This document shows, one piece after another, positions 45,128-59,678 of a stretch of DNA of 59,678 nucleotides (position 1 is the first letter of the stretch; each line of letters begins with the position of its first letter). A model generated the notes under the pieces. It ran no database searches. It had not been told where the DNA came from and worked only from the letters and a program-made list of their open reading frames with translations. The DNA is taken from positions 1 to 59,678 of the IMG/VR virus record IMGVR_UViG_3300037182_000030; one strand, given 5' to 3'. Source of the DNA: a virus. Its lineage: Duplodnaviria; Caudoviricetes. A program made the translations under genes and the position numbers.

Positions 45128-45134
45128 ATCCAAA

Positions 45135-45953: not shown

Positions 45954-45954
45954 T

Positions 45955-46734
45955 ATGTCAGCAATCGCCACAGCCTGGGCTTGGAAAACGCCGACGAAAA
46001 GTCCGACGATGAAACTGATTTTGCTCGTGTTGGCTGAATTCGCCACGGAGAAAAACAAGACGGGTGTGAGCATGGAGGGATTGCAGCAATTAAGCGGAAT
46101 GACGCAAGCGCAGGTGGAGTATGCGATTCAAGGGTTAGTGGACGGATTGGCAATTGAAGACACTGGCGCGAGAATCGGGGATCAAAAGAACATCCGCGTA
46201 TTCCAATTGATGCTGCTCAAACCGCTGACCAAAATAAAACGCCGGACGAAGCAAACGAGCCTGGCATTTACAGAGGCCGAAGAAATTTACAAATTGCACC
46301 CCAGACCAGTCGCAAGGCCGCGCTCGCTGAATCTGATAAACAAGGCAATCGCCGCACACGGGTTTGAATTCATCAAAGAGAAAACCGCTCTGTTTGCAAA
46401 GGCGTGGCAGGGCAGAACAGATATTGAGCATTGTGCCCATAGTTCCACTTGGTTTCAGCAGGAACGCTATTTGGACGACATCAAGACGATTGGAGGCTCG
46501 TTTGCGGCAAGAGCAACAGCCGGACCAAAATTCAATGAAGTGCGCGAATATGTTTTGCAGCACGTCACACGAGATGATCGGGGTTGGAGTTCATCGTTCT
46601 ATGGGTATTGGAATGACCCAAAGCGGAACTGGAAAGACAAAACAGGCCAGTCAATAGACTGGAAAGAGCGGCTTTCAAAACAACTTGCAGCATGGCGGGC
46701 ATCCGAACAAAAAACAAATTTGACACCCGCATAA
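45955..46734 (+). CDS. Phage replication initiator (N-terminal HTH)
   Basis: MS..A..WAW......KLILLVLA.FA; IY..HPR.V; H.STWF.QERY.D. Confidence 0.75.
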   Translation: MSAIATAWAWKTPTKSPTMKLILLVLAEFATEKNKTGVSMEGLQQLSGMTQAQVEYAIQGLVDGLAIEDTGARIGDQKNIRVFQLMLLKPLTKIKRRTKQTSLAFTEAEEIYKLHPRPVARPRSLNLINKAIAAHGFEFIKEKTALFAKAWQGRTDIEHCAHSSTWFQQERYLDDIKTIGGSFAARATAGPKFNEVREYVLQHVTRDDRGWSSSFYGYWNDPKRNWKDKTGQSIDWKERLSKQLAAWRASEQKTNLTPA

Positions 46735-46862
46735 AAAAGCCTATGCTCTGGTCATGCAACAATCGAAACTCAACTTCTCCCGGCTTGTCGGCCTCACGGC
46801 CATTTTGCGCCCCGCGCAGGATTGTTGCAGGGCAAGCCGGGGGGACTTTTCAAACTGCAACA
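46720..46862 (+). promoter_or_regulatory. Promoter plus structured leader
   Basis: TTGACA-16-TATGCT; nested inverted repeats. Confidence 0.6.
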
Positions 46863-47351
46863 ATGAAAAACCGAATTCCTTACGCCAGCTTAATTAAGCA
46901 TAGCCACTGTTTGGGCGGAAAGCACACTCGCACATATCACGCATGGGAGGCAGCAAAGCAAAGATGCTATAATCCAAACACTCCAAACTTCAAGGATTAT
47001 GGAGGAAGGGGAATACGCATGTGCCGAAGATGGAGAAACTCATTTGCCAACTTTCTTCACGACATGGGGCCAAAGCCGGAAGGGTTGACCTTGGACCGGA
47101 AAAACAACAACGGAAATTACACGCCCACGAACTGCCGATGGGCAACCCGCAAGCAGCAATCCAACAATCGGAGAAGCTGCCGCTTCATAAGATTCAACGG
47201 TCAGACAAAAAACATTTCCCAATGGGCAAAGTTCACTGGAATAGGGCGCAGAACTTTAGCGCGGAGAATTGATGAGGGTTGCTCCCTGAAATCCTTGCTG
47301 GACGGTGACGATTTAGCAACTTCAAACAAACCGGCTGAACCACCAACCTGA
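46863..47351 (+). CDS. HNH homing endonuclease
   Basis: W...KQRC.NPN...F..YGGRGI..C.RW..SF.NFL.DMG.KP....LDR.NNNGNY.P.NCRWAT..QQ.NN. Confidence 0.9.
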   Translation: MKNRIPYASLIKHSHCLGGKHTRTYHAWEAAKQRCYNPNTPNFKDYGGRGIRMCRRWRNSFANFLHDMGPKPEGLTLDRKNNNGNYTPTNCRWATRKQQSNNRRSCRFIRFNGQTKNISQWAKFTGIGRRTLARRIDEGCSLKSLLDGDDLATSNKPAEPPT

Positions 47352-47357
47352 CATTTT

Positions 47358-47570
47358 ATGAGCGCACAAATCAAAACACTCGGCGAAGCATTGCCGGAAG
47401 AAATCAAACGCTGCACAGAATTGCTTTCGCAATATGCAGCCATCGGGCCGGCTGGAAATTTCGGCGCGGCAATGATAAGACTGGACATCCAAAACGGCGT
47501 TAATGCTCTGGCATCAGGCGACGTGGTAGCGATGTTGGCCGCTCACGAAGCACTCAAAGGCTGTAAATAA
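47358..47570 (+). CDS. Conserved small phage protein
   Basis: LGEALP.E..R..ELL..Y..IGPAG.FGA.MI...I......A.GDVVAM. Confidence 0.65.
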   Translation: MSAQIKTLGEALPEEIKRCTELLSQYAAIGPAGNFGAAMIRLDIQNGVNALASGDVVAMLAAHEALKGCK

Positions 47571-47620
47571 TTTCTGTCTCACGGGCAGGAAAATAAACCA
47601 TCAACAAAAAAGGAAAGCAC

Positions 47621-47998
47621 ATGGCAACAAAAAAAGACAAAAGCAAAGCACCGCTGAAAGACCTGAAGGACATCCCCGGCGGCACAAAGTCCGAAAAGGG
47701 CAAGCCGCAGGAACTCCCCGGTGTCACCGGCCCCGGCGTGGAGCCGATGTCCATTCCGACGCTGGACAAATTCATCGTCAAATATGAAACCGCCAAAGCG
47801 AAGCGGTGTGCGGAGTCGCCGGGAGAACTCCAGGCCAAGAAGGAACTGAAATTCGCGCTGCATCAGCAGGCGGCGAGCCTTCCGGTAAACGCGGAGGGAT
47901 TTCGATTTTACAGATCGTCAGACTATGAAAAGGACTACACCTTGGAAGAAACCCTTAAAGTTAAATCCATGAACGCAGACGCCGGGGACCCTGATTGA
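47621..47998 (+). CDS. Hypothetical protein
   Basis: A-rich leader; intact ORF. Confidence 0.55.
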   Translation: MATKKDKSKAPLKDLKDIPGGTKSEKGKPQELPGVTGPGVEPMSIPTLDKFIVKYETAKAKRCAESPGELQAKKELKFALHQQAASLPVNAEGFRFYRSSDYEKDYTLEETLKVKSMNADAGDPD

Positions 47999-48137
47999 CA
48001 ATCAGCAAAAAGGCATTATGCTCTTGTTGTGTCACAGTTCAATCAATCTGCCGCTTGCTCCGAACGCTTCACCGCGTCTATGCGCTTTCCTGCGCACTGT
48101 GACACACGGAGCGAGCGGCGTCTCAATAGGTGTCACA
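47995..48137 (+). promoter_or_regulatory. Promoter plus structured leader
   Basis: TTGACA-16-TATGCT; nested inverted repeats. Confidence 0.6.
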
Positions 48138-48773
48138 GTGAACTTAAAACCACATCCCCAAATAAAAAACGAAACAGGCAAGAAATACGGGAGATTGTTT
48201 GTGGAGTCTTTAGGGGTTATCAAAAAACGGAAGGCTTACTGGAAGTGTGTTTGCGATTGCGGAAAACATTGCCAGATTTGTGGAACGTCGCTTAGAAATG
48301 GAATGACGCAATCGTGCGGTTGCTGGCGTCAAGACACCGCAGCATTGCGAGCCTACAAACATGGAAGCGCAATAACAGAATCAACAGAATACAGATCTTG
48401 GAAACATGCAAAAAACAGGTGCCAAAACAGTAAAAACAAAGCCTTCAAATACTACGGAGCTAGGGGAATAAAGATTTGCAATCGGTGGAATCATTCATTT
48501 GAAAATTTCTTAAAAGACATGGGCAAAAAGCCGACAGGGAAAAGCCTTGACCGTAAAAACAACAACGGCAATTACACGCCAAAGAACTGCCGGTGGGCAA
48601 CACCATACGAGCAGTCAAACAACAGCCGACATTGCAGAATCATAAAATACGGCGGTATCAGTAAAACGCTTAAAGGATGGGCAGATTGGAGCGGCATAAA
48701 TATCAGAACCTTACATTCAAGGCTGAAAAACAAAACAATTGGAATGGCCTTAAATACGCCAGTCCGAAAATAA
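48138..48773 (+). CDS. HNH homing endonuclease
   Basis: G.KYGRL.V....W.C.CDCG...L..G.T.SCGC...YGARGI.IC.RW..F.NFL.DMG..P...LDR.NNNGNY.P.NCRWAT. Confidence 0.9.
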   Translation: MNLKPHPQIKNETGKKYGRLFVESLGVIKKRKAYWKCVCDCGKHCQICGTSLRNGMTQSCGCWRQDTAALRAYKHGSAITESTEYRSWKHAKNRCQNSKNKAFKYYGARGIKICNRWNHSFENFLKDMGKKPTGKSLDRKNNNGNYTPKNCRWATPYEQSNNSRHCRIIKYGGISKTLKGWADWSGINIRTLHSRLKNKTIGMALNTPVRK

Positions 48774-48774
48774 A

Positions 48775-49059
48775 ATGACACCGCTCGAAACGCTTTTGGC
48801 GCAATGGTGGCCAAACGTCAGGCCGTCCGGGGATAAAAATATATTCCTCGTTCGGTCGCGTTCATCGCCGAATGTCTGGCGGCGCGTGGATGCCCAAGGG
48901 CGTTTCGGGATTGGTATTTGCAACTGTCCTGACAACCAGAAAAACAAAAACCCGTCATGCCATCATATTCAATCCGTTCGCGGGTGGATTATGCAGGTGA
49001 CAATGTATTCGGAAATAAAAAAAGACTTGGAAGGCAGCCGAAAGCCTGTTACAAATTGA
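48775..49059 (+). CDS. SWIM zinc-finger protein
   Basis: CNCPD......C.HI. Confidence 0.65.
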   Translation: MTPLETLLAQWWPNVRPSGDKNIFLVRSRSSPNVWRRVDAQGRFGIGICNCPDNQKNKNPSCHHIQSVRGWIMQVTMYSEIKKDLEGSRKPVTN

Positions 49060-49078
49060 CCCGACGAAAGAAAAGAAC

Positions 49079-49618
49079 ATGACAAAAAACGAAGCCATCG
49101 CAATCGCCTATTTCAAAACGCTGGTGGAATCATTTATCGCTCATCCCCAGGATTTGAAGGTATCGGCAATAGAGGACGCGGATTGGGTGTCTGTGCGGCC
49201 ATCATGCAACTCGAAAGATTTTGGGCGCATTGTCGGCAGCGGCGGAAAACTTTATATCATTTTGAAAATGTTGATGGGTTTGGCGGGAAAGAAGGCCGGC
49301 AAAGAATTTTTGCTTCAAAGGATGGCTCCCGCACAAGGCGACAGAGAATTCATCAACCCGACGCCGGCAAAAGAAAATTGGAGCAAGTCAGACACGGAAA
49401 AAGTCGGGTGGATTCTTCGGGACATTGCCAAAGGCGTTTTGAAAAACGATTTTGCTTTCCACGCCAAAGGCGACACCGAACGGACGGTCTTAAAAATCGC
49501 AATTGACGACAACGAACCGCTTCCAATCCAGCACGAGGATTTGATTTTTGCATTGAGTCGAATCATCGGGGCGGTCGGAAACGTCTTGGGAAGGGAAATC
49601 AAAGTCGAATCGGCCTGA
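49079..49618 (+). CDS. KH-domain RNA-binding protein (KhpA-like)
   Basis: LV...I.HP.D..V......D.GRIVG..G. Confidence 0.7.
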   Translation: MTKNEAIAIAYFKTLVESFIAHPQDLKVSAIEDADWVSVRPSCNSKDFGRIVGSGGKLYIILKMLMGLAGKKAGKEFLLQRMAPAQGDREFINPTPAKENWSKSDTEKVGWILRDIAKGVLKNDFAFHAKGDTERTVLKIAIDDNEPLPIQHEDLIFALSRIIGAVGNVLGREIKVESA

Positions 49619-49639
49619 CGGTCAAACCAAGAAAAGAAT

Positions 49640-50062
49640 ATGAGCCTACAACACACCACAGCGCGCCGGAGCCAGCCCAAGCCATTTGCATCCGCGAAGG
49701 CGGCTGGCGTAGCAGGGAGGCGGCAAGTCGCGAGCCGGACAGCCAAAAAACGGGCTGGTGATGAATGTCCAACGTGTGGCCAAAAAGGAGAGCGGGTCGA
49801 GCCGGAAATCATGCTGTGCAGAAATCCTCACTGCGGAACGGAATTTTTCAGAGTATTGTTCCACATGGCACAAAAAACAATCCATCGCCGATGCGTTTGC
49901 GGACGGCTCAAAGAGCGAGTCGAAAAGCGATATTGCCGCAAGTGCGGAATCCTTCACGGCATGAGAATGCACGCCGCGCACATTGGCCGGGGGACTGGAC
50001 CGAACGCCAGGTCAAAGAAAATTCAACGGTTGATGCCGTCATTGCCATTGGAGGAAACATGA
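49640..50062 (+). CDS. Zinc-finger hypothetical protein
   Basis: CPTC, C.NPHC, C.C, C..C. Confidence 0.5.
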   Translation: MSLQHTTARRSQPKPFASAKAAGVAGRRQVASRTAKKRAGDECPTCGQKGERVEPEIMLCRNPHCGTEFFRVLFHMAQKTIHRRCVCGRLKERVEKRYCRKCGILHGMRMHAAHIGRGTGPNARSKKIQRLMPSLPLEET

Positions 50063-50631
50063 TTCAGCGCAAAACACTATTCAGCGATGACAGAAAATTC
50101 CGCTACACGCTTTGGCGGGAATTTTATCCGATTTTTGCGACCGATGGCGCCGCCGGGAAAGTTCCAATCGAAGGGAACAAGTCGCATCATTTTGTGATGT
50201 TCATCGGCCTGAATCCGTCCACCGCAACAGAAACAGAAGACGACCCCACAAACCGACGTTGCATCCGGTTTGCGAAGGAGTGGGGATTTGGAGCTTACTG
50301 CATGACGAACCTTTTTGCATTTTGCACGGCCTATCCGAAAGTTTTGACCGAAGCTGGACATCCAATCGGCGAGCCTGGGAATTACATCACAGTCGGAAAC
50401 GCAGGTTTTGATAACCGGAATGACTATTGGCTTTATCTGACTGGCCGCGAAGCTGGTTTAATCGTCGCCGCATGGGGATCGTTTCCGCAAGCTGTAGAGC
50501 GAGCAAAAACAATCCGCAAAATGTTCGCCGGGAAACTTTACTGCCTCGGACAAACCGCCAATGGAAGCCCAAAGCATCCTCTTTATTTGCAAGCCGACAC
50601 GAAGCCAATCCTTTACGATGAACCAAAATGA
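50059..50631 (+). CDS. DUF1643-family protein
   Basis: RY.LWR; FIGLNPSTA....DDPT.RRC..FA..WG; NLFA; VAAWG; G.P.HPLY. Confidence 0.88.
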   Translation: MIQRKTLFSDDRKFRYTLWREFYPIFATDGAAGKVPIEGNKSHHFVMFIGLNPSTATETEDDPTNRRCIRFAKEWGFGAYCMTNLFAFCTAYPKVLTEAGHPIGEPGNYITVGNAGFDNRNDYWLYLTGREAGLIVAAWGSFPQAVERAKTIRKMFAGKLYCLGQTANGSPKHPLYLQADTKPILYDEPK

Positions 50632-51146
50632 TTGCCCGCCGAAAAACACCAAGACCGCTCGCCTTATGGACTCAACTACCAGGGGCGCGTTTGACGCCTT
50701 CGCCAAAGGGACGCCAGCGAGAAAAGAATGGCGCAAGTGGATTCCGTTCCTTCACCCGGTCGAAATACTTATCGAAATTGCCAAGGCAAAAGCCGATCAA
50801 AAAAGTGTCCACTAAAAAACAAAAGTCAGACCGGCTTTACATGGCCATCGCAAAAGAGCATCGCCGGCAGCCGGGCAACGATTATTGCCGGGTTAAATTC
50901 GCGCTGACAAGACGAGTAATTCCGGCAACTCACACGCACCACATTCGAGGCCGACTGAAAACTCTGAAATTCGACACGCGATTCTTTTGCCACACGACAT
51001 TTGAAAATAATCTTTGGCCTCACAGGAATCCAAAAAAGGCGCAAGCGTTGGGATTGATCGCTGGGCCGGGAGAGTGGAACGTCGCGCCAAATGACGCGGA
51101 AACTGAACGGATCAAAAGCTGGATGATTGAAAAAGGAATCTGGTAA
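50628..51146 (+). CDS. HNH-like protein; its stop forms the distal boundary of the array
   Basis: C......AT..HH.RGR; ends TGG TAA|C. Confidence 0.55.
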   Translation: MIARRKTPRPLALWTQLPGARLTPSPKGRQREKNGASGFRSFTRSKYLSKLPRQKPIKKVSTKKQKSDRLYMAIAKEHRRQPGNDYCRVKFALTRRVIPATHTHHIRGRLKTLKFDTRFFCHTTFENNLWPHRNPKKAQALGLIAGPGEWNVAPNDAETERIKSWMIEKGIW

Positions 51147-51238
51147 CGCATAGCTCTGCCATGAACACCGCGCCAACGATGCCCGATTGCAATGAAACCG
51201 CCAACGCGGTGGTCATTGGCAGCAGCGCATGGTTAGAC
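51141..51238 (-). repeat. attC: attC #16 (distal)
   Basis: TAAC-GCTCTGCCATGA / TCATtGGCAGcAGC-GTTAGAC. Confidence 0.85.
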
Positions 51239-51988
51239 GCCATTGTGTGTGATGACAATGTGAAAGTCCTCTCCGGCCTGCCTGATGCGTGTATAGACCT
51301 GACGGTAACAAGCCCACCGTATGACGACATCTTCGCGTATGGTGGTCACTCGTGGGACTTCAACGCGCTCGCGGCGCAACTCGCCCGCGTGACAAAGCCG
51401 GGCGGCGTGGTGGTGTGGATAATCGGCGACCAGACAAAGAACGGCGCGGAAACGCTGACGAGCTTCCGGCAAGCTCTCGCCTTCGACGCGCTCGGACTGC
51501 GGATGCACGACACGATGATCTACGAGAAATCCGGCGTGGCATACCCTGACAGCAACCGATACCTGCAAGTCGTGGAATGGATGTTCGTCATGTCGAAGGG
51601 AAAACCGAAAACCGCGAACCTGCTGCGTGACCGGCCAAATAAATACGTCGGCACGATGGGCGGCAACGGACGCGGCGGACTGTGCAAGCGAAATGAGAAC
51701 GGCATCCGCTTCAACATCTGGCGATACCCGACTGGCCGCGACAACTCGACAAAAGACCGCGTGGCATACGAGCATCCGTGCGTGATGCCGGAAGCTCTCG
51801 CCCGCGACCATATCCTGACGTGGAGCAAGGAAGGTGAAACCGTGCTGGACTGCTTCGCTGGCAGCGGCACGACTCTGAAAATGGCACGGGAAACCAACCG
51901 CCGATACCTCGGCATCGAAGTGAATCAAACCTATGTGGACATCATCAACAAACGCCTCGAAAACCATGCGCTCCCGCTTGGCGTCTAA
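51161..51988 (+). CDS. Cassette cargo: DNA N4/N6 methyltransferase
   Basis: VTSPPY; HPCVMP; VLDCFAGSGTT; start codon inside attC. Confidence 0.92.
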   Translation: MNTAPTMPDCNETANAVVIGSSAWLDAIVCDDNVKVLSGLPDACIDLTVTSPPYDDIFAYGGHSWDFNALAAQLARVTKPGGVVVWIIGDQTKNGAETLTSFRQALAFDALGLRMHDTMIYEKSGVAYPDSNRYLQVVEWMFVMSKGKPKTANLLRDRPNKYVGTMGGNGRGGLCKRNENGIRFNIWRYPTGRDNSTKDRVAYEHPCVMPEALARDHILTWSKEGETVLDCFAGSGTTLKMARETNRRYLGIEVNQTYVDIINKRLENHALPLGV

Positions 51989-52072
51989 CATTGAGTCCAG
52001 CCATGCCGGGGCTGTGACTCCCAAATGAAACTGAAGCGGCCAACCGGCATTGGCTGCGACGATTTGTTGGGC
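51983..52072 (-). repeat. attC: attC #15
   Basis: GTCTAAC-GTCCAGCCATGCCGG / CCGGCATtGGCTGcGAC-GTTGGGC. Confidence 0.88.
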
Positions 52073-52103
52073 AGGCCGGTCTGAAAATAAGTGAAAATAA
52101 ATC

Positions 52104-52132
52104 TTGCTATCCGAACCGCTTGGGTTTAATCT
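52104..52132 (+). promoter_or_regulatory. Cassette-internal promoter
   Basis: TTGCTA-17-TAATCT, ATG 7 nt downstream. Confidence 0.55.
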
Positions 52133-52139
52133 CTCTTCA

Positions 52140-52388
52140 ATGAAAACATACTATGCCACCGCAAAAGACTGCAAAGAATTTGATACCGCAATCGCGAGCC
52201 TCCGGCCACTCGCAATCTCAATAGCGGAGACGCGCCGGTTGCTCGTAATGGCTGGGGTCGGAACATTCGGCACGGAAAAAGAACGCCAGATGCTTGCGAA
52301 ATTTGAGGATAAAATCACCAAACTCCAAACGAAGCTCTATAAACGCGCTCAAAAGGCTTGGTATCATTCCGCAGGAACCGTCCAATGA
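52140..52388 (+). CDS. Cassette cargo: hypothetical protein
   Basis: MKTYYATAK... Confidence 0.6.
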   Translation: MKTYYATAKDCKEFDTAIASLRPLAISIAETRRLLVMAGVGTFGTEKERQMLAKFEDKITKLQTKLYKRAQKAWYHSAGTVQ

Positions 52389-52528
52389 ATAAGGCCGCTC
52401 AATCTCTCGGACGCCTCGGCGGTCTAGCGAAGTCGAAAGCCAAGACTGCCGCTGCGCGTCGTAACGCAAAACTCGGTGGACGCCCGAAGAAAACCAAACG
52501 CTCGGCCCGGCGGCCTAACGCCGCGTGA
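52385..52528 (+). CDS. Cassette cargo: small basic GGRP peptide
   Basis: MNKAAQSLGRLGGLAKSKAKTAAARRNAKLGGRPKK...; not in the ORF track. Confidence 0.7.
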   Translation: MNKAAQSLGRLGGLAKSKAKTAAARRNAKLGGRPKKTKRSARRPNAA

Positions 52529-52620
52529 TGAGCCACGCGAGAATTTTATGAAACCAAAAACACTGAAAAAGACCAATCGCAAACCCGTAACCCGCGTTGG
52601 CTCCGGCACGCTTGTTAGCC
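52513..52620 (-). repeat. attC: attC #14
   Basis: GCCTAAC-GAGCCACGCG / CGCGTtGGCTC-GTTAGCC. Confidence 0.8.
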
Positions 52621-52856
52621 GACGGGTGAGGCTTGAATTTATGGTAGTGCCAGAACTACTCGCTACCAAAGCGTATGTCCCGACCCCGGTGCGCTGCAAA
52701 ATAATAGACCCGGAAGCAATCTTTCTGACGGGCATCTTGGGTGACAGTGGCCGCAAACTGGTAAAAGCTGGAATTGAGTTCTACTTTACGAAGCGTCTTG
52801 CTAACAAGTTAATCTCAAAGCGAATTGCCGTGAAGTCGGCTAACGAAAAAAGCTGA
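52548..52856 (+). CDS. Cassette cargo: hypothetical protein
   Basis: Start inside attC #14, stop inside attC #13. Confidence 0.6.
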   Translation: MKPKTLKKTNRKPVTRVGSGTLVSRRVRLEFMVVPELLATKAYVPTPVRCKIIDPEAIFLTGILGDSGRKLVKAGIEFYFTKRLANKLISKRIAVKSANEKS

Positions 52857-52963
52857 GCCACGGCGACGGGAAACAATCTCCGACTGCAAATGAAACAACC
52901 AAATAACCAAATAGCGCCGAAACTGACGGGGCAGTCGCCGTTGGCTCCGGCGCGTTGTTATGG
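52838..52963 (-). repeat. attC: attC #13
   Basis: GGCTAAC-GCTGAGCCACGGCGAC / GTCGCCGTtGGCTCcGGC-GTTATGG. Confidence 0.88.
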
Positions 52964-53499
52964 CTCAAATTATGAATAAACTGACTCAAAAAATTCGGTC
53001 TGCTTACGAGCAAATTAAGAAGCGGCCATTCGACCGCCTTCCGCTTCACGGCGTTGGGGCGGAAATTGGCGTCTATCGCGGCATCCACGCCCGTAAATTT
53101 CTCAACCGCATTGCCGTCCAAAAGCTCTACGTCGTTGATCCGTGGATAAACTACACGCAAATGTTTGATCTGCCGCAAGCGGAGCGCATCTGTCACTTTC
53201 TGCTGGACGGGTTTGAGGATAGGTGTGTTTTCTGCAAAGCCACGGCGCAGACGGCCAATCTCCCGCAACTGGACTTCGCCTACATAGACGCGTTGCACAC
53301 TGATGAGGGCGTAACTGCCGACATGGAAACAATCTGGCCGCTGATAAAGCCCGGCGGAATCATGGGCGGTCACGACTTTGACACGAACTGGCCGGGAGTG
53401 GTGCAAGGCGTCATCCGATTCGTGGCGAAAAACAACCTGACGCTTAACGTCCAGTCGCCGGATTGGTGGGTGGTCAAAAGCCATAACGACCCGAACTGA
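52960..53499 (+). CDS. Cassette cargo: class I SAM-dependent methyltransferase (Methyltransf_24-like)
   Basis: GAEIGVYRG, VDPW, DFAYIDA.H, IKPGG.M.GHDF. Confidence 0.85.
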   Translation: MAQIMNKLTQKIRSAYEQIKKRPFDRLPLHGVGAEIGVYRGIHARKFLNRIAVQKLYVVDPWINYTQMFDLPQAERICHFLLDGFEDRCVFCKATAQTANLPQLDFAYIDALHTDEGVTADMETIWPLIKPGGIMGGHDFDTNWPGVVQGVIRFVAKNNLTLNVQSPDWWVVKSHNDPN

Positions 53500-53591
53500 G
53501 ACACCGCCGATGTGCGGTGTCCGAACTCTAAAAAATCTTATGGCAAAAAAGAAAGCGTCAACGGCGGTTGTCTCCAGTGAGATGGTTCGGC
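53481..53591 (-). repeat. attC: attC #12
   Basis: CCATAAC-ACTGAGACACCGCCG / CGGCGGTtGTCTCcAGT-GTTCGGC. Confidence 0.88.
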
Positions 53592-53908
53592 AGCCGGATA
53601 ACCTGTATCTCCAATGGCACGGGGATGCTGAACCGACCGACTCACCAATCAGCGTGATGGATGTCACATGGTCACGAGATAAAATCTGGCCGTATGACAT
53701 CGAATATGCCCGCGTCCCAAACGATGCCTTCATCGCCCCACTGATGAGGTGGCTGGTGCAACGGGAAGGAAAATGCGCGGCGACAACCATGAGCATCCTT
53801 AAACGCAAGCTCGACCGCTACATCGAAACCGCCAATCACGAAGAATGGCGCAAGCTGCCGAACGTCCTGCGTGAGCCAAGCGGGACTGACGGCTCACGAT
53901 TGAAATGA
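53540..53908 (+). CDS. Cassette cargo: hypothetical protein
   Basis: P...YLQW......VTW..D.I...DIEY.R phage-type motif. Confidence 0.65.
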   Translation: MAKKKASTAVVSSEMVRQPDNLYLQWHGDAEPTDSPISVMDVTWSRDKIWPYDIEYARVPNDAFIAPLMRWLVQREGKCAATTMSILKRKLDRYIETANHEEWRKLPNVLREPSGTDGSRLK

Positions 53909-53946
53909 CAGCGACAACCCGCTTTGGCTCCACGCAGTTGTTGGGC
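53857..53946 (-). repeat. attC: attC #11
   Basis: GCCGAAC-CGTGAGCCAAGCGGG / CCCGCTTtGGCTCcACG-GTTGGGC. Confidence 0.88.
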
Positions 53947-54402
53947 AGGCCGGCTGAAAATATACAAATGAAAATACATCTGATAATCGAAATCGAGGAC
54001 GACGGAAAGACGCGCCGCGCCACCGTGCAGCGCGTGGCGAAAGTCGCGGAACTCAACGGCGACCGTGAACTGCTCATCGCGCCAGCCGCCGCGCTCGAAA
54101 TCATCAAGAAACAGAAGCGTGCAAAAATCGCGGATGTCGCGCCCGCGCCAGTGCCGCCGCTACCTGAACCGGACGCGCCGAAAATCGAGCGCAAAGGCTC
54201 CGGCCCGCAATTCGATCCCGGCTTTCTGAAAATCATCGAGGATGCGCCCGAACCGTTCACGCGCCGGAGTCTCGCGGTGAGTAGCGGCTTGAAAGTCGAG
54301 GACGTGACACAACGGCTAATCCGGCTGCACAAGAAAGGCTGGATACACCAGCCCGCCCGCGAAATGTGGGTGAGAACCAAAACCTTTGGAGAAAAGCCGT
54401 GA
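53905..54402 (+). CDS. Cassette cargo: protein with C-terminal winged helix
   Basis: PFT...LA...GL....V...L.RL.KKGWI. Confidence 0.6.
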   Translation: MTATTRFGSTQLLGRPAENIQMKIHLIIEIEDDGKTRRATVQRVAKVAELNGDRELLIAPAAALEIIKKQKRAKIADVAPAPVPPLPEPDAPKIERKGSGPQFDPGFLKIIEDAPEPFTRRSLAVSSGLKVEDVTQRLIRLHKKGWIHQPAREMWVRTKTFGEKP

Positions 54403-54680
54403 GCAACTTCGACAAGCAATATGCGCGGCAAGGTGGCCGGTGCTTCTGGTGCCAACATCTTGTGCCAGTCGCGGCCATGACCCGCGACCATATCGAGCCA
54501 AAAACCCACGGCGGCGCAAACGACTGGTCAAACATCGTGCTGGCCTGCGCCAAGTGCAACGAAGCCAAGTCCGCGCTCCATGTCGGCAGCATCCGGTTCG
54601 ACAAGAGGCTGCGGAAAGTAATGCGCGGAGAAATCTATCGCTTCATCCGCCGGGAAACATTCAAACACAACGCGACATGA
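54399..54680 (+). CDS. Cassette cargo: HNH endonuclease
   Basis: Q.GRCFWC......T.DHI.P...GG.N...NIVLAC..CN..K. Confidence 0.85.
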   Translation: MSNFDKQYARQGGRCFWCQHLVPVAAMTRDHIEPKTHGGANDWSNIVLACAKCNEAKSALHVGSIRFDKRLRKVMRGEIYRFIRRETFKHNAT

Positions 54681-54687
54681 ACCGGCT

Positions 54688-54816
54688 GCCCAACGACTGA
54701 CTTCAGACACCGCCGACAATATGCAAACCAACTCTGAACCAACTGCGATGCCCGCCGAAGCCAACAACTCCCGAACCGCCAGCGATGAGGCGGTTGTCTG
54801 CAAGGAATTGTTGGGC
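54688..54816 (-). repeat. attC: attC #10
   Basis: GCCCAAC-CTTCAGACACCGCC / GGCGGTtGTCTGcAAG-GTTGGGC. Confidence 0.88.
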
Positions 54817-55077
54817 TGCGGTGGTAAGACTGCCATCAAACCATACAAGGAACTAAAACCGTGTCCTTTCTGTTTCGGTGCGGCCTGCCTCCATCGTCGG
54901 CGGTCGGTGAACAATGCCGTAGGCCACGCGAAAACCGGGTGGGTGTATCACGTCCACTGCACCGACTGCGGCGCTCATTTTCACGAGGACGGAAACGAAG
55001 GAAGTGCTGTCTCGCGCTGGAACTCACGAGAGCAGCCCAACGGTCGGGATCAGAGGCCCGGCGACCAAAACGCATGA
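54721..55077 (+). CDS. Cassette cargo: Lar-family restriction alleviation-like protein
   Basis: ELKPCPFC.G....V.C..CGA......A...WN.R. Confidence 0.75.
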   Translation: MQTNSEPTAMPAEANNSRTASDEAVVCKELLGCGGKTAIKPYKELKPCPFCFGAACLHRRRSVNNAVGHAKTGWVYHVHCTDCGAHFHEDGNEGSAVSRWNSREQPNGRDQRPGDQNA

Positions 55078-55125
55078 ATACGAATGAGACGCAATCGCCG
55101 GGTTCTCTGCATCCCGTGGTTCGGC
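55035..55125 (-). repeat. attC: attC #9
   Basis: GCCCAAC-GATCAGAGGCCCGGCGA / TCGCCGGGTtCTCTGcATC-GTTCGGC. Confidence 0.88.
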
Positions 55126-55418
55126 ATCCCTCGTTCGATGCTGATGGATACCCAACCGAGGAAACCGAACTGGCAATCAAGGCGTGGGACTTTCGAGACG
55201 CGCCCGGCTGGCTGGCATACATCCGCGAGGCGTGGAATCACCACTATGGTAGAATGTGGGAAGACAACGGAACGATCAAGATGGCGACTGGCGGATGGAG
55301 TGGCAACGAATCAATCACGCACTCCATGCGAGAGAACTACATCCTATGGTCGCTGCTTTGGGAATCGTCGCATCGGGGCGGCCTCGAAGTGCTCAGGATG
55401 CCGAACATTTCAAGCTGA
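55074..55418 (+). CDS. Cassette cargo: conserved phage hypothetical
   Basis: D.DGYPTEE....I..W...TGGWSGNE.I......W...W.SS.RGG. Confidence 0.7.
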   Translation: MNTNETQSPGSLHPVVRHPSFDADGYPTEETELAIKAWDFRDAPGWLAYIREAWNHHYGRMWEDNGTIKMATGGWSGNESITHSMRENYILWSLLWESSHRGGLEVLRMPNISS

Positions 55419-55509
55419 GCCACAGGCGCGAACTGAATAAACCGTGAATCTGCAAACCGACATCCAAACGACAGCAGCCCCGCCTGTTGGCTCCGGCGCT
55501 GTGTTAGGC
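55400..55509 (-). repeat. attC: attC #8
   Basis: GCCGAAC-GCTGAGCCACAGGCG / CGCCTGTtGGCTCcGGC-GTTAGGC. Confidence 0.88.
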
Positions 55510-55998
55510 GGCAAGTGTCCGGTGTGTGGCGGGCCGAACCCCAAGCGGCATGGGTCTTTTGAGAAAACTTGTTCTTTAAGTTGCGGCCATAAATTGAGAT
55601 TCCAAACCGACCCCAAAGTAAAAAAGCTTCTGCTAAAATACAGATATGTCTGCCTCGGATGGCACGGAAAAGGAAAAGGCGCGAGGGATAATCCCGACCA
55701 CGCAAACGCCAAAGCCATCCGAGTTCGTGATCCGCTTGGTGTGGTGCATGAAATCAAAAACATAACGTCTTGGTGCCGAAAAAATGAACAACTATTCAAG
55801 CCATACGATAACCCGGAGGCAAAGCTTCCGCTCTGGCGACGCGCACAAGTAGGTCTGACAAGTATTGCTTGCGGAGACAAGTGCTCGTGGCATGGCTGGA
55901 CTGCTGTTTGCGTTTTCGACATAGAAGCTGACCCACTGGCAAGGCGCGTGGCTTTGCCGCCTAACGTGGCGCTAAAACACGGCGGCGATCACCAATGA
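55444..55998 (+). CDS. Cassette cargo: Zn-ribbon plus putative DNA-binding domain protein
   Basis: CPVCG...TCS..C; DP.G....I.N...WCR.N...GW. Confidence 0.6.
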   Translation: MNLQTDIQTTAAPPVGSGAVLGGKCPVCGGPNPKRHGSFEKTCSLSCGHKLRFQTDPKVKKLLLKYRYVCLGWHGKGKGARDNPDHANAKAIRVRDPLGVVHEIKNITSWCRKNEQLFKPYDNPEAKLPLWRRAQVGLTSIACGDKCSWHGWTAVCVFDIEADPLARRVALPPNVALKHGGDHQ

Positions 55999-56066
55999 CT
56001 TTCGACTGCAAATCGAATCTGGAAACTGCGGGGACTCCCGCCGTTGTTTTCAGCAACTGGTTAGGG
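55959..56066 (-). repeat. attC: attC #7
   Basis: GCCTAAC-GCTAAAACACGGCGG / CCGCCGTtGTTTTcAGC-GTTAGGG. Confidence 0.88.
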
Positions 56067-56077
56067 AGCGTCAAACT

Positions 56078-56353
56078 ATGAGCTGGTCACTAAACCTGAT
56101 AGGAAAAAAAGAGGATGTCCAAGCCTGCGTGAAAGCGCAAATCGTGGACACAAAATACGCGCCTGAAATCGGCATGGCAATCATTGCTGAAATCTCGGCG
56201 ATACCAGGGCCAACTGGTGTGCCTGATGGACACTGGAGCGCAACGCACGTCATTGTGCGAGGCAGCGGCCACACTGGCGGCGGCGTGAACGAACTGAAAA
56301 TCGAACCGTTCACGGAATGCAAAACACCTGTGGTAGCACCGCCTGTAACCTGA
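56078..56353 (+). CDS. Cassette cargo: hypothetical protein
   Basis: MSWSLNLIGKK...; coupled to attC-encoded peptide 55995-56081. Confidence 0.65.
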   Translation: MSWSLNLIGKKEDVQACVKAQIVDTKYAPEIGMAIIAEISAIPGPTGVPDGHWSATHVIVRGSGHTGGGVNELKIEPFTECKTPVVAPPVT

Positions 56354-56387
56354 ACCGACGGGGAGCTTGAGCGTCGAAACTCAAGCT

Positions 56388-56497
56388 CCCTAACGATGAA
56401 AGCTGAGCCACCGCTGACTATGGACACACAACAACCAACGACTCCTGCGGCAACCCGCGATGACCAACAGCGGTTGGCTCCGGCGGGTTTGTTAGGC
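56388..56497 (-). repeat. attC: attC #6
   Basis: CCCTAAC-GCTGAGCCACCGCTG / CAGCGGTtGGCTCcGGC-GTTAGGC. Confidence 0.88.
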
Positions 56498-56713
56498 CAC
56501 GTCCGAAAACATGGACTCCAAATAGAATGGTGCCGAGACATCCCGGAAGGCGCGCGAAAACTGGCGGTGAACAGAACTCGTGAAATGCTGATCCACTACG
56601 GGCGCAACATCACCAGCCTGAACATCGAAACCCTAGTGCTGTCTTGCTACCTGCAAGGCATCAATGACTGCTTTGAATACCATGAACATAAATCTAAAAC
56701 TGTGGGCAATTAA
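56420..56713 (+). CDS. Cassette cargo: hypothetical protein
   Basis: Start inside attC #6; L..SCYLQG..D. Confidence 0.6.
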   Translation: MDTQQPTTPAATRDDQQRLAPAGLLGHVRKHGLQIEWCRDIPEGARKLAVNRTREMLIHYGRNITSLNIETLVLSCYLQGINDCFEYHEHKSKTVGN

Positions 56714-56813
56714 AATGATCTTCGTGTGGCGCTGGCGTTGCGGATACTGGGACTGGGACGCATTCCGCGCCGCTTGGAACGTCAAGTGGCCTAACGGCCC
56801 GGATCAGCGATGA
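56682..56813 (+). CDS. Cassette cargo: 43-aa Trp-rich peptide
   Basis: MNINLKLWAIKMIFVWRWRCGYWDWDAFRAAWNVKWPNGPDQR; TGA overlaps ATG 56810. Confidence 0.45.
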   Translation: MNINLKLWAIKMIFVWRWRCGYWDWDAFRAAWNVKWPNGPDQR

Positions 56814-56882
56814 GCGCCACCCAAGACATTCAAATTGAAACCGACGTGCGTGGCGCTCATTCGCTGCATCCGGTGGTTGGGG
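56789..56882 (-). repeat. attC: attC #5
   Basis: GCCTAAC-GATCAGCGATGAGCGCCAC / GTGGCGCTCATtCGCTGcATC-GTTGGGG. Confidence 0.9.
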
Positions 56883-57679
56883 CGCATTTCGAGGACTCAC
56901 AAACTAGAATCATAAACGCCGACTGCCTGAACACGCTCGAAGAAATGGAAGATGGAAGCTGCCATGCTGTAATCACTGACCCGCCGTTCTCGTCTGGTGC
57001 GCGAACCGACGCCGGAAAGAATATGCGCGGCGGGATGCAACGCGGCGCGAAGTGGCAAGAGAACTGGTTCAGTCACGACAACCTCGCCACTCACGGCTTC
57101 AACTATCTGATGCGCCTGGTGGCTGTGGAACTCTACCGTGTGACAACGCCAACCGCGACCGCCCACTTCTTCATAGACTGGCGGATGTATCCGAACCTCT
57201 ACGCCGTGGTGGAGTCGGCGGGATGGATCGCAAAGAATCTCGTGGTGTGGGACAAGAAACACTTCGGGATGGGCGGCAACTACCGCAACCAGCACGAGCT
57301 AATCCTCTACTGCGAAAAGACGGCTGGCGCTGACTTCCGGCAAAAGAACCTCGGCAACGTGATAAGCAGCAAGCGGGCTGAAATGCTGCACCATCCGACA
57401 GAGAAGCCGACCGACATCCTCGGTCTGATGATTCGGGCGGTGACTGACGAGGGGCAAACCGTGCTCGACCCATTCATGGGCAGCGGGTCAACGCTTCGCG
57501 CCGCCAAAGACAACAATCGGAAATCAATCGGCATCGAGATATGCCGAGAATACTGCGAAGTGGCCGCAGCACGGATGGCTCAAACCGTCCTGCCACTGGA
57601 CGCGCCCGCAATGCGCCCCAACGCAGAGTTCAGGAACGCCGCATCTGGCGTTCCCGGACTCGATGGAGGCGTCCAATAG
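56810..57679 (+). CDS. Cassette cargo: DNA N4/N6 methyltransferase
   Basis: ITDPPF; HPTEKP; VLDPFMGSGST. Confidence 0.92.
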   Translation: MSATQDIQIETDVRGAHSLHPVVGAHFEDSQTRIINADCLNTLEEMEDGSCHAVITDPPFSSGARTDAGKNMRGGMQRGAKWQENWFSHDNLATHGFNYLMRLVAVELYRVTTPTATAHFFIDWRMYPNLYAVVESAGWIAKNLVVWDKKHFGMGGNYRNQHELILYCEKTAGADFRQKNLGNVISSKRAEMLHHPTEKPTDILGLMIRAVTDEGQTVLDPFMGSGSTLRAAKDNNRKSIGIEICREYCEVAAARMAQTVLPLDAPAMRPNAEFRNAASGVPGLDGGVQ

Positions 57680-57705
57680 GCGTTTCCTGCAACGATTTGT
57701 TGGGC
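57616..57705 (-). repeat. attC: attC #4
   Basis: CCCCAAC-GTTCAGGAACGCC / GGCGTTtCCTGcAAC-GTTGGGC. Confidence 0.88.
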
Positions 57706-57736
57706 AGGCCGGTCTGAAAATAAATGAAAATAGTTC

Positions 57737-57765
57737 TTGCAACCAAAGCGGCTTGGGTTTATTGT
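57737..57765 (+). promoter_or_regulatory. Cassette-internal promoter
   Basis: TTGCAA-17-TATTGT, ATG 6 nt downstream. Confidence 0.55.
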
Positions 57766-57771
57766 GTGGGT

Positions 57772-57978
57772 ATGAAAACGAACGAAATCAAATCGGTGTC
57801 AGCGGCGCACGGCAAAATGAACATCGTTCACGCGGCGGGCGCGACGGTGGAAGGCTGCACGGCGGCATACTACGCGCTCTGCGGCGACACGCGGGCAATC
57901 CGGCGGTCAATGCGCGGATTTCTTGAAGTGTATGTCCCGGTGAACTGCCCGTCATGCCTTGCCAAGCTCGCAAAATGA
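57772..57978 (+). CDS. Cassette cargo: small Zn-binding protein
   Basis: VH......ALCG......VNCPSC. Confidence 0.6.
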   Translation: MKTNEIKSVSAAHGKMNIVHAAGATVEGCTAAYYALCGDTRAIRRSMRGFLEVYVPVNCPSCLAKLAK

Positions 57979-58289
57979 AAACTGAATGGAAATGGCTACT
58001 CGACTGGATAGCACAAAACGGCAGCGCCGACTGCTTGAACACGCCGCTCGCGCTCGACGCCTGCGAGCGGTTCGGATGGCGCTGCATCAGAACTGGCCTG
58101 CATACGGTGTCAACGCCTCGCGTCGGACGGGAACTGGCGAAGATGGCAAGGGCTGGCTACCTCGAAAAGAGCCGCGCCGGAATCTCCGGACTCGGCTACG
58201 GGTGGCCGAAATGGGTGTGGACATACAGCCTGACAAGTATGGCTGCCCAAATTGCAACGGAGACGGTTGCGAACTCTGCCGCTAAATGA
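57975..58289 (+). CDS. Cassette cargo: winged-helix-like protein
   Basis: GR.L..M...GYL...R.G......GWPKWV..Y.L. Confidence 0.6.
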   Translation: MKTEWKWLLDWIAQNGSADCLNTPLALDACERFGWRCIRTGLHTVSTPRVGRELAKMARAGYLEKSRAGISGLGYGWPKWVWTYSLTSMAAQIATETVANSAAK

Positions 58290-58465
58290 ACATCACAAAA
58301 TATCTGTCTGAAATCGGGCGCAAAGGCGGTAAAGCCAAGAGCCGCGCCAAACTCGCCGCTGCGCGTGCAAATGGGAAACTTGGTGGACGCCCGAAGAAAC
58401 CTAAACGCGCCGCCCGTCTGCCCAACACTAAAGTGAGCAGCGTGATCGTGAGCAACCGTGAATAA
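58286..58465 (+). CDS. Cassette cargo: small basic GGRP peptide
   Basis: MNITKYLSEIGRKGGKAKSRAKLAAARANGKLGGRPKK...; paralog of 52385-52528. Confidence 0.7.
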   Translation: MNITKYLSEIGRKGGKAKSRAKLAAARANGKLGGRPKKPKRAARLPNTKVSSVIVSNRE

Positions 58466-58541
58466 CTCGACAACCATTCTAACCACTGAAACCGTGCCAA
58501 CTGGCGGGAGCAATCACGTCTGCTCCACTGCCTTGTTAGAG
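58420..58541 (-). repeat. attC: attC #3
   Basis: GCCCAAC-AGTGAGCAGCGTGAT / ATCACGtCTGCTCcACT-GTTAGAG. Confidence 0.88.
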
Positions 58542-59276
58542 CACAGGATCGTGGCGCTCTCTGGTGGAAAAGACTCAACCGCTCTCGCTCTCCGGCTCGC
58601 GGAAGTAGAACCGCAAGCGTATCAATTCTGCATCACGCCGACAGGCCGCGAACTGCCGGAAATGCTCGACCACTGGAAAAAGCTGGAATGTCTGCTTGGC
58701 GCTCCGCTGGTGCGAATCCCAGGCCCGTCGCTGCTCGACCTCATCATCAAATACAAGACGCTGCCAAACTTCCGGCTGCGCTACTGCACGCGGGAAGTGA
58801 AAATCGAGCCATTCATCAAATACGCGGAGAGCCTCGCGCCTGCAATCTGCTACGTCGGCATCCGTGCCGATGAAGCCGATGACCGCGAAGGAACGAACTG
58901 GAATGGCATCGAAGGCGTGAAACAAGACCTGCCGCTGGTGCGCTGGGGATGGGGCGTGAACCGCGTAAAAGAATATCTGCGCGAACGCGGCGTGACGATA
59001 CCGGAACGGACGGACTGCGACTGCTGCTATCACCAGCAACTCGGCGAATGGTGGCGGCTGTGGCGCGACCACATAGACCGCTGGATGGAAATCGAAGCTC
59101 TCGAAATCTGGACTGGTCACACGCTCCGCAGTGAACAGCGCGACTCGTGGCCGGCGAGCCTGAAAGAACTCCGCGCAAAATTTGAAGCTGGCTACATCCC
59201 GAAAGGGGCAGCGCAAATGAAAATCCCGCTCGACGTAGCCGAGCGGAAAACAATGTGCGCTTGGTGCGCTCGATAA
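58458..59276 (+). CDS. Cassette cargo: PAPS-reductase-family (PP-loop) protein
   Basis: VALSGGKDSTAL; TG.E.PE; R.CT...KI.P; VGIRADE..R; PL..WG; R..C..C. Confidence 0.85.
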   Translation: MNNSTTILTTETVPTGGSNHVCSTALLEHRIVALSGGKDSTALALRLAEVEPQAYQFCITPTGRELPEMLDHWKKLECLLGAPLVRIPGPSLLDLIIKYKTLPNFRLRYCTREVKIEPFIKYAESLAPAICYVGIRADEADDREGTNWNGIEGVKQDLPLVRWGWGVNRVKEYLRERGVTIPERTDCDCCYHQQLGEWWRLWRDHIDRWMEIEALEIWTGHTLRSEQRDSWPASLKELRAKFEAGYIPKGAAQMKIPLDVAERKTMCAWCAR

Positions 59277-59277
59277 T

Positions 59278-59547
59278 ATGCCATACGAAACCCTACACCC
59301 CGGAAAGAAATGTCCCGAATGCGGCGGCAGGGGAAAAATCTACCGTCACGTTCCGAAATACGCGATAGCCATGCCCGGCGTGGCTGACGACTGGACATAC
59401 GAAGATCAAGAATGCTGGCGCTGTCATGGTGACGGCATCGCGCGTTCGCTGGACGCACGGCTGTGCTCTAACGTAGAAGTCAGCGATGGCGCGTCGCTGA
59501 CCAACCGAAAAACAAACGCAGCGTCCTCGCGCCATTCGCTGCACTGA
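59278..59547 (+). CDS. Cassette cargo: DnaJ-type zinc-finger peptide
   Basis: CPECGGRG...CWRCHGDG; reads through attC #2. Confidence 0.6.
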   Translation: MPYETLHPGKKCPECGGRGKIYRHVPKYAIAMPGVADDWTYEDQECWRCHGDGIARSLDARLCSNVEVSDGASLTNRKTNAASSRHSLH

Positions 59548-59557
59548 CGGGTTAGGA
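59466..59557 (-). repeat. attC: attC #2
   Basis: CTCTAAC-AGTCAGCGATGGCGCG / CGCGCCATtCGCTGcACT-GTTAGGA. Confidence 0.9.
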
Positions 59558-59678
59558 CTTTTATGAGAACAACAATAATGATAGCTGCAATCCTTTTGGT
59601 CGGCGCTCATGGAGTGCCGGAAAGCAAAGTAAATATCGGAACTGGAATAGCCAGATTCGGACTGTTGTGGTCACTGGC

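Follow-up and report, generated by a model that had tools for sequence, protein, structure and literature searches.

A putative phage-native integron with mirror-image cassettes in a tailed-phage contig

Introduction

How could an integron operate if all of its cassette genes lay on the strand that recombines? The question is raised by a contig of 59,678 nucleotides (nt) assigned to a virus (Duplodnaviria, Caudoviricetes; IMG/VR virus record IMGVR_UViG_3300037182_000030), the whole of which is referred to here as the window. It carries an array of 16 gene cassettes with attC-like hairpins and, at the downstream end of the array, a gene for an IntI-type integrase. In integrons, selection of the attC bottom strand for recombination is thought to make promoterless cassette genes face the promoter Pc, according to the account of strand selection in Nivina 2016 (PMC5027507). 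A preliminary description of the window had held that every cassette gene is inverted relative to attC, that the exchanged unit is a hairpin plus the gene downstream of it, and that the crossover lies at AA|C. From sequence comparisons, we consider it likely that the locus is a working, phage-native integron built in mirror image.

The attC-like sites of the array

When AAC...GTT pairs were ranked by the alignment of their arms, nearly all top candidates fell within 51145-59553 and 177-260. A screen of whole-hairpin energy had given no discrimination, and arm alignment was used in its place. A covariance model, R1, was built from the + strand sequence of 8 hairpins. At E <= 1.6e-4 it identified 15 sites; one more has E = 0.16. 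Each of these 16 is on the + strand, and none falls outside 51141-59557 and 173-264, directly upstream of intI. Elsewhere, in the remaining ~50 kb, the best match has E = 0.44 (filters off, 37 matches up to E = 10). The array had been placed at 51141-59557 beforehand; those coordinates are right, but the array also continues over the contig ends.

The features of the array are given below in order, with R1 scores for the hairpins and Pfam matches or codon scores for the genes. The runs holding the window are labelled peat metagenome; runs X3, X4 and X6, cited for comparison, are other peat or permafrost runs.

51141-51238, + strand: hairpin s01, bottom-strand polarity on +; 62.4 bits; C and T bulges in the 3' arm
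51161-51988, + strand: cassette 1, N6/N4 DNA methyltransferase (PF01555, E 6.4e-37); start codon in the s01 5' arm, TAA stop in the s02 R' box
51983-52072, + strand: hairpin s02; 90.1 bits
52140-52388 and 52385-52528, + strand: cassette 2, two genes without a Pfam family, the second for a small basic protein; codon score in favour of +; paralogue of cassette 13
52513-52620, + strand: hairpin s03; 25.4 bits, E 1.2e-4; outside the model seed
52548-52856, + strand: cassette 3 gene, ATG in the s03 loop; Pfam search, codon score
52838-52963, + strand: hairpin s04; 25.6 bits at 52842-52959
52960-53499, + strand: cassette 4, class I methyltransferase (Methyltransf_24, PF13578, E 1.9e-13)
53480-53591, + strand: hairpin s05; 26.7 bits; loose ends of other runs' contigs at 53484
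53510-53908, + strand: cassette 5 gene, extending 45 nt past the s06 AAC; codon score
53857-53946, + strand: hairpin s06; 71.8 bits
53968-54402 and 54399-54680, + strand: cassette 6, two genes, the second for an HNH endonuclease (PF01844, E 3.6e-12)
54688-54816, + strand: hairpin s07, the weakest; 14.3 bits, E 0.16, at 54696-54811; R boxes GCCCAAC and GTTGGGC
54721-55077, + strand: cassette 7, Lar restriction-alleviation protein (PF14354, E 6e-12)
55035-55125, + strand: hairpin s08; 76.5 bits
55074-55418, + strand: cassette 8 gene; Pfam search, codon score
55400-55509, + strand: hairpin s09; 28.2 bits
55444-55998, + strand: cassette 9 gene; codon score; segment 55486-55965/6 found in X3 and X4 contigs
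55959-56066, + strand: hairpin s10; 42.4 bits
56078-56353, + strand: cassette 10 gene; Pfam search, codon score
56388-56497, + strand: hairpin s11; 37.6 bits
56420-56713, + strand: cassette 11 gene; Pfam search, codon score
56789-56882, + strand: hairpin s12; 66.0 bits
56810-57679, + strand: cassette 12, N6/N4 DNA methyltransferase (PF01555, E 1.3e-33)
57616-57705, + strand: hairpin s13; 78.2 bits
57772-57978, 57986-58285 and 58286-58465, + strand: cassette 13, three genes; codon score; paralogue of cassette 2
58420-58541, + strand: hairpin s14; 24.9 bits at 58422-58539; breaks of other runs' contigs at 58427, 58430 and 58433
58458-59276, + strand: cassette 14, PAPS-reductase-like protein (PF01507, E 2.2e-7)
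59278-59547, + strand: cassette 14, small Cys-rich protein, running into s15; codon score
59466-59557, + strand: hairpin s15; 84.2 bits
173-264, + strand: hairpin s16, nearest attI; 89.2 bits
270-428, + strand: cassette 16, small hydrophobic protein; the gene is a tandem copy of one that begins at 59563 and crosses the contig end; TAA stop inside the last R' box
424-458, + strand: last R' box TCCTAAC (424-430) and attI candidate (431-458, possibly extending into intI); no hairpin after the AAC
459-1412, + strand: intI, integron-type tyrosine recombinase of 317 amino acids (TIGR02249; alignment with IntI4, 2a3v)

Read on the + strand, the 5' side of a site consists of RYYYAAC, a spacer of ~5-7 nt, ~3 pairs, 6 pairs and the inner stem, which leads into a variable loop. 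The 3' side returns through the inner stem, an unpaired T, 6 pairs, an unpaired C, ~3 pairs and a spacer of ~5 nt to GTTRRRY. The phage sites therefore present the features of attC, namely RYYYAAC...GTTRRRY, an unpaired spacer, extrahelical bases in one arm and a variable loop. The unpaired T and C, six pairs apart, lie in the 3' arm at 16/16 sites in the R1 model alignment. Unconstrained DNA folding returned exactly these C and T single-base bulges in the 3' arm at 10/16 sites and the T bulge at 4 more; s04 and s13 adopt other folds, and single-base bulges in the 5' arm occur at 3/16. The earlier placement of the extrahelical bases in the 3' arm of the + strand is borne out.

The stems also covary. 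In the aligned stems 87.5% of cells are paired versus 69.1% in shuffles, a value reached by none of 500 shuffles, and 31-41% in slid controls; double-sided changes occur in 15 of 23 stem pairs. Four sites have nearly identical arms (GCTGAGCCAC / GTTGGCTCCGGC). Among the 120 hairpin pairs, s15 and s16 have the highest identity (77%; median 57%). In contigs of other runs, the loops of s04 (52880-52920) and s05 (53510-53563) show small indels or a 52-nt gap, and from such alignments the loops appear to be the most variable part of the hairpin sites.

Strand polarity of the sites

In the description of attC sites in PMC5027507, the bottom strand begins with 5'-RYYYAAC (R', in whose AAC cleavage occurs) and continues through L', the loop and L'', near which the extrahelical bases lie, to R''. 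The annotated class 1 cassettes of phage P1 isolate L-II (locus L157) were taken as a control. On the coding strand, the attC of aadA has its two extra bases in the gene-adjacent arm, which on the opposite strand is the 3' arm; 6 bases separate the two and 3 pairs lie farther out, the same spacing as in the phage sites. R1 matched 4/4 class 1 attC sites of this locus on the strand opposite to the gene (30.0, 29.7, 27.4 and 23.2 bits); on the gene's own strand it scored 10.3 and 10.1 bits for the first two, and the other two were unlisted. In 4/4 cases, the bottom strands of the class 1 sites, folded freely, carry 3'-arm bulges of G,T or C,T. The class 1 top strands (n=4) aligned too poorly for a reverse model, and the reciprocal R1 test was used instead.

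Beyond this control, 63/64 R1 matches in 79 metagenome integron loci and 73/74 in 18 bacterial genome loci were located upstream of intI and on its sense strand. The window shares the geometry of these bacterial-type loci, with the array upstream of intI and the matches on the intI-sense strand, in agreement with what had been proposed for its intI and attI. This shared geometry and the shared site architecture indicate that the phage + strand is the structural equivalent of the attC bottom strand. In the GenBank virus Rctr41k, which has an IntI-like gene (32.5% identity), R1 gave one marginal match (E = 0.036) that is not upstream of the integrase.

Because the hairpins lie on the coding strand, they are expected in the messenger RNA, and they might act mainly there, as terminators, processing sites or translation signals, with a convergent likeness to attC. 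Start codons do lie in the loops of many sites, and R'' (GTTAGGA) can supply a Shine-Dalgarno-like AGGA (by eye). This explanation does not predict that a model trained on the phage hairpins would find bacterial attC sites beside intI, on one strand in nearly every case. Nor does it account for R boxes, spacer and bulge spacing that equal those of class 1 sites base for base, or for cassettes found in other contexts with AAC junctions, and a terminator scan came out near chance (29 found against 21.6 expected, standard deviation 4.5). We regard a mainly RNA-level role as very improbable.

Coding strand and cargo of the cassettes

Six array open reading frames (ORFs) on the + strand have Pfam matches above cut-off (two N6/N4 methyltransferases, Methyltransf_24, Lar, PAPS-reductase-like and HNH), and no such match was obtained for any of the 8 longest - strand ORFs of the array. 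A codon log-odds model trained on 19 backbone genes, which recovered the true strand in 19/19 leave-one-out trials, scored the + strand ORF above its - strand rival in 19/19 comparisons within the array. A count of the longest open frame per interval was noisy, with + exceeding - in only 8/14 window intervals, and ORF tiling and the codon model were used instead.

Since the + strand both codes and corresponds to the attC bottom strand, all cassette genes are inverted with respect to the classical gene-attC relation, as the preliminary description had claimed. In the classical layout, top-strand genes read away from intI; here all cassette genes read towards it. On the + strand a cassette runs from the C of its R' box through L', the loop, L'' with its two extrahelical bases and R'' (GTTRRRY) to one to three genes, ending with the RYYYAA of the next R' box. 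The four Pfam domains examined begin downstream of the hairpin (coordinate arithmetic).

By family name, the identifiable cargo is mostly concerned with DNA modification or anti-restriction, both in the array at 51141-59557 and in the viral loci L002, L057, L058, L060 and L069. Families found across the phage arrays comprise N6/N4 and C5 methyltransferases, Lar, PAPS-reductase-like proteins, QueC and HNH. This composition suggests that phage arrays form a counter-defence store, and the array of the window is probably an exchangeable store of this kind.

Two copies of a gene for a small, very basic protein (52385-52528 and 58286-58465) form the ends of cassettes 2 and 13. The protein has a weak match to the KGG motif (E 0.0042, below cut-off). 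Three contigs of run X4 begin matching exactly at 52385, which shows that the gene occurs in other contexts.

Integrase

The product of intI matches TIGR02249, 'integron integrase', over its full length in a single stretch (E 4.6e-68, 229.9 bits), and the XerC and XerD models match it only piecewise. Pfam assigns it Phage_integrase and Phage_int_SAM_4 domains. Among solved structures it is closest to IntI4 of Vibrio cholerae (2a3v, E 1.9e-36), in an alignment whose sole gap is one residue after query residue 194. The IntI-specific insert, ~30 residues before the HxxR motif (query ~195-240), aligns with 2a3v without a gap. Identity to IntI1 is 35%. Among 34 aligned relatives, R143, K160 and R269 are invariant and H266, H292 and Y301 nearly so; from knowledge of the family and the 2a3v alignment, we take these to be the catalytic residues.

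A protein database search returned 69 relatives at 45-94% identity, on contigs of up to 77 kb, beyond which come annotated bacterial integron integrases at <=38% identity. The best relative among 185,579 prokaryote species (one genome each) has 40% identity. The phage IntI thus appears to be a divergent lineage, seen solely on phage-sized or short environmental contigs. A scan of viral contigs with the single protein found no IntI relative; an alignment-based scan did yield relatives.

Distribution of the layout

On viral contigs with IntI relatives, R1 gave 47 matches at E <= 1, 42 of them on the + strand. Hairpins are found upstream of the integrase gene, on its own strand, for example at viral loci L001, L002, L057-L061, L069 and L077. 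ORF tiling favoured + over - in 8/9 viral-type arrays (the window included) with 1 tie, and - over + in 13/13 metagenome arrays. Among the genome arrays - was favoured in 7/10; two others were nearly tied, and the last was L160, a 54-kb contig that carries the closest genome-borne IntI. In related viral arrays, 8/10 + strand ORFs have Pfam matches (C5 and N6/N4 methyltransferases, PAPS-reductase-like, QueC) versus 0/10 on the - strand.

In a quick IntI tree limited to 36 rows (midpoint root, SH-aLRT support only, other loci left out), the window groups with L077, L001 and L061 (support 99), and L002 is sister to them (support 92). Other co-directional viral loci branch separately, so the layout requires at least two to three changes on this tree. 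Nucleotide BLAST of the array found nothing in L001 or L002 and, in L077, 71 shared nt that lie inside intI only; relatives at ~50% IntI identity are too distant for cassette borders to be mapped in this way. At four other viral loci (L024, L055, L016 and L046) R1 matches lie downstream of intI on the - strand, an arrangement that looks like the Treponema-type atypical integron layout.

The attI border and expression

The AAC of the last cassette lies 28 nt before the intI start, and no hairpin follows it. This end of the array is a candidate attI, and such a site would have to overlap intI. The corresponding regions of relatives have a common AAC-N2-3-T[GT]ATT (by eye). The only 28 nt between the last AAC and the intI start are too few for the divergent Pc and Pint promoters of the classical layout, and the short gap would fit co-transcription of intI with the cassettes.

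A promoter scan of the window was at chance (7 found, 6.6 expected), and no RNA runs holding the stretch were listed. A conserved stretch, GGCAGGCCGG(T)CTGAAAATA...AAATGAAAATA..TCT, follows s02, s06 and s13 (52066-52135, 53940-53990 and 57699-57770) and may be a promoter or regulatory site inside the cassettes. After it, in two of the three cases, stands a promoter-like element, TTGCnA-17-TAnTnT (by eye); this shared element means that some cassettes may carry their own promoter. The preliminary description proposed that no Pc is needed, that cassettes are transcribed towards intI from phage early promoters, and that the newest, attI-proximal cassettes would be promoter-distal, the classical expression gradient being reversed; promoters inside cassettes may weaken this proposal. 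In L002, a perfect TTGATT-17-TATAAT (by eye) lies between the last AAC and intI (9930-9975), which suggests a Pint promoter inside the attI region.

Cassette borders and competing explanations

Several natural junctions bear on what moves as a unit. At the intI-proximal end, s15 and a small membrane-protein gene are followed by s16 and a second copy of the gene, the copies differing by 7 mismatches in 139. Hairpins s15 and s16 are the most alike of all although the genes upstream of them are unrelated, so both copies of the duplicated cassette keep their upstream hairpin, as had been noted at the outset. The intI-proximal copy ends at TCCTAAC with no hairpin downstream. Cassettes 2 and 13 align ungapped at 74% identity from 51993 and 57626, a little beyond the AAC of the hairpin of each (from 52033 and 57666 by BLAST), and their likeness stops at the C of the next AAC, at 52519 and 58426. 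At L061 and L001, homology begins exactly at the AAC, 25 nt ahead of the intI ATG, with unrelated DNA on its left side.

Contigs of X3, X4 and X6, compared over 44000-59678, contain single cassettes at a depth far above that of the phage backbone. Among the pieces listed, right ends with an unlike continuation lie 0-3 nt after a 5' AAC in 6/6 cases (Logan contigs; 53864 twice, 54694, 54697, 55965 and 55966). Breaks at 54694 and 54697, in s07, come from X3 and X6 contigs. At 53864, an X3 contig joins the cassette 5 gene to a different hairpin type, and this gene has therefore lost 'its' downstream hairpin there. Among the ends listed, 5' boxes also coincide with the left ends 58430 and 53484 and with the loose ends 58427 and 58433. 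Junctions at the 5' AAC make the cassette unit a hairpin plus the downstream gene, and the paralogues, the tandem copy and the L061/L001 border concur with the unit first proposed. The coding strand accordingly looks like the strand that recombines. With the proposed crossover at AA|C the listed right ends agree throughout, but several left ends fall inside hairpins.

A number of observations weigh against the mirrored layout. Some left ends fall within the loop or where the conserved 3' arm begins (52028, 53918 and 55486, the last in two runs), and loose ends occur after 5' arms at 52862 and 56419 and by the 3' box at 52961 and 52618. One X3 contig has a joint from 52872 to 55486 in which the gene is 99% identical (5 differences in 480) and the 5' arm resembles that of another site. 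The longest ORF begins within the hairpin in 10/16 cassettes, starts here being longest-ORF calls only, and ~11 ORFs extend 9-75 nt beyond the proposed crossover (coordinate reading); ORFs that read past the AAC would have their C-terminal tails changed when cassettes move. R1 did not recognize the Vibrio-type attC sites of phage Va_90-11-286_p16 (nothing better than E = 0.14), which leaves that control uninformative. ORF tiling is crude, with + greater than or about equal to - at 3/10 bacterial genome loci. The IntI score of 229.9 bits is below the curated NCBIfam cut-off of 265 for TIGR02249. The case for recombination is, moreover, comparative throughout.

The irregular ends could point to a different process, in which the attC-like sites are real and shuffling occurs mostly by homologous or short-homology recombination between arms. 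The Rad52-like protein of the phage could act in this process, by analogy with the mobile promoter stem-loops of T4-type phages, and IntI would have a minor or other role, for example in phage integration. The nearly identical arms of four sites would provide the homology, the left break points named above fall at the start of the 3' arm or after the 5' arm, and the phage encodes a Mgm101/Rad52-type protein and an exonuclease-like ORF. However, breaks between unlike hairpin types sit at the AAC with only ~7 nt in common (53864, 54694 and 55965), the full attC architecture is kept with covariation at every site, and the array ends at an attI-like junction next to an intact IntI. Arm recombination as the main process is unlikely in our judgement. 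The hybrid hairpins nevertheless suggest that short-homology recombination acts too, for which the phage annealing protein could be responsible. Where arms are nearly identical, alignments can run through whatever the true crossover is.

Could the polarity instead be ordinary, with the + strand as the attC top strand, each gene moving with its downstream hairpin and the crossover at G|TT of the 3' box? Given the symmetry of RYYYAAC and GTTRRRY, the boxes cannot settle this by themselves. Stop codons are often located within the 5' box or immediately after it (TAA in TCTAAC at 51986-88; 426-428), ORF ends within the next hairpin, as in the ~11 cases above, are common in classical cassettes, and the loose ends at 52961 and 52618 are also where this polarity would put them. 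Yet a top strand would have its bulges in the other arm, with class 1 sites taken as control. Furthermore, intI and the conserved AAC junction are at the downstream end, where the last cassette has no following hairpin; 0/6 of the listed right-hand break points are at a 3' box; and the homology between cassettes 2 and 13 stops at an AAC. Ordinary polarity is accordingly a quite improbable reading of the array.

For the mirrored integron that we favour, we hypothesize that IntI folds the + strand of a hairpin, cleaves at 5'-AA|C-3' and excises the hairpin and its downstream gene as a unit, which would be inserted at attI just before the intI start codon. Genes would be read towards intI, with starts that are probably often inside or just after the hairpin, and could be driven by upstream phage promoters, cassette-borne promoters or both.

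The phage genome

The window is a whole assembly in a single contig. Nearly all of its long ORFs are on the + strand, and it encodes a large terminase (8447-9928) and a portal protein (13356-15158), tailed-phage genes by which the contig is identified as a tailed-phage genome. It also encodes endonuclease VII and a methyltransferase. Positions 59538-59678 repeat 1-141 with 2 mismatches, and a contig of run X2 extends beyond 59678 with 33 letters that agree with window positions 142-174 (comparison by eye). From the terminal overlap and this continuation, the map closes on itself inside the array. No Rfam family matched anywhere in the window at gathering thresholds.

A few kb upstream of the array are the Mgm101/Rad52-type annealing protein gene (43026-44066) and the exonuclease-like ORF (45135-45746; RNase_T at 23.2 bits, just under the Pfam cut-off of 24). 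Their products could supply single-stranded DNA or promote short-homology exchange between hairpin arms. At 49619-50628, an X4 contig lacks 1008 nt, including a DUF1643 gene (49765-50631), and has 30 other letters in their place. Judging from this contig, the DUF1643 gene belongs to the backbone, outside the hairpin array, and is present in some relatives but not in others.

Comparison with known systems

Repeated stem-loops between accessory genes, linked to gene shuffling, are known from the phage promoter stem-loop cassettes (PeSL) of T4-type phages, which are not known to have a dedicated recombinase or attC architecture. Single inverted cassettes, such as toxin-antitoxin cassettes with their own promoters, are exceptions in ordinary chromosomal integron arrays. 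In the phage array inversion extends to 16/16 cassettes, and related viral arrays share this pattern. A toxin-antitoxin cassette with its own promoter is among those named in Qi 2023 (PMC9892861).

The complete integrons of phages treated in that article are captured bacterial ones (Vibrio, class 1 in P1, a Shewanella prophage), and its virulent-phage attC clusters (CALINs) have no integrase (PMC9892861). Those phages and the window share attC sites and methyltransferase cassettes in phage genomes, and neither a phage-specific IntI lineage nor mirrored polarity was met in the passages of Qi 2023 consulted, whose supplementary tables list further phage CALINs. The window does not hold a CALIN, which has no intI nearby, as intI lies 28 nt after the last cassette. 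In the Treponema-type atypical integrons, as characterized in PMC3607928, intI and the cassette genes are co-directional, as they are here. The Treponema intI is reversed, however, reading towards attI with the array behind it (PMC3607928), whereas the phage intI is in the classical place and the genes are turned inside the cassettes.

Our literature search turned up no publication that describes an IntI lineage specific to phages or arrays in which every cassette is inverted. It is conceivable, and we propose it only tentatively, that the array represents an old and widespread class of phage-owned integrons with mirrored cassettes. In this class the hairpin would act as a 5' leader with a start codon or ribosome site, intI would be the last gene of the transcript, and phages would trade a shared pool of anti-restriction and DNA-modification genes, the counterpart of bacterial defence cassettes. 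A phage-owned platform for gene exchange with an anti-restriction stock bears on phage-host arms races, and pipelines that expect top-strand genes may mis-annotate such mirrored arrays.

With classical integrons (class 1 and sedentary chromosomal), the phage array shares an IntI with the specific insert, a position upstream of the intI 5' end, the attC bottom strand on the intI-sense strand, 5'-AAC-3' junctions, R' and R'' boxes, an unpaired spacer, two extrahelical bases near L'' and a variable loop, features that follow the description of attC recombination in Nivina 2016 (PMC5027507). It differs from them in that its genes are on the bottom strand and read towards intI, its unit is a hairpin plus the downstream gene, and its carrier is a phage. 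With every gene on what is probably the recombining strand, it indicates that recombination machinery and expression logic can be uncoupled, and it offers a natural system for testing what sets strand choice.

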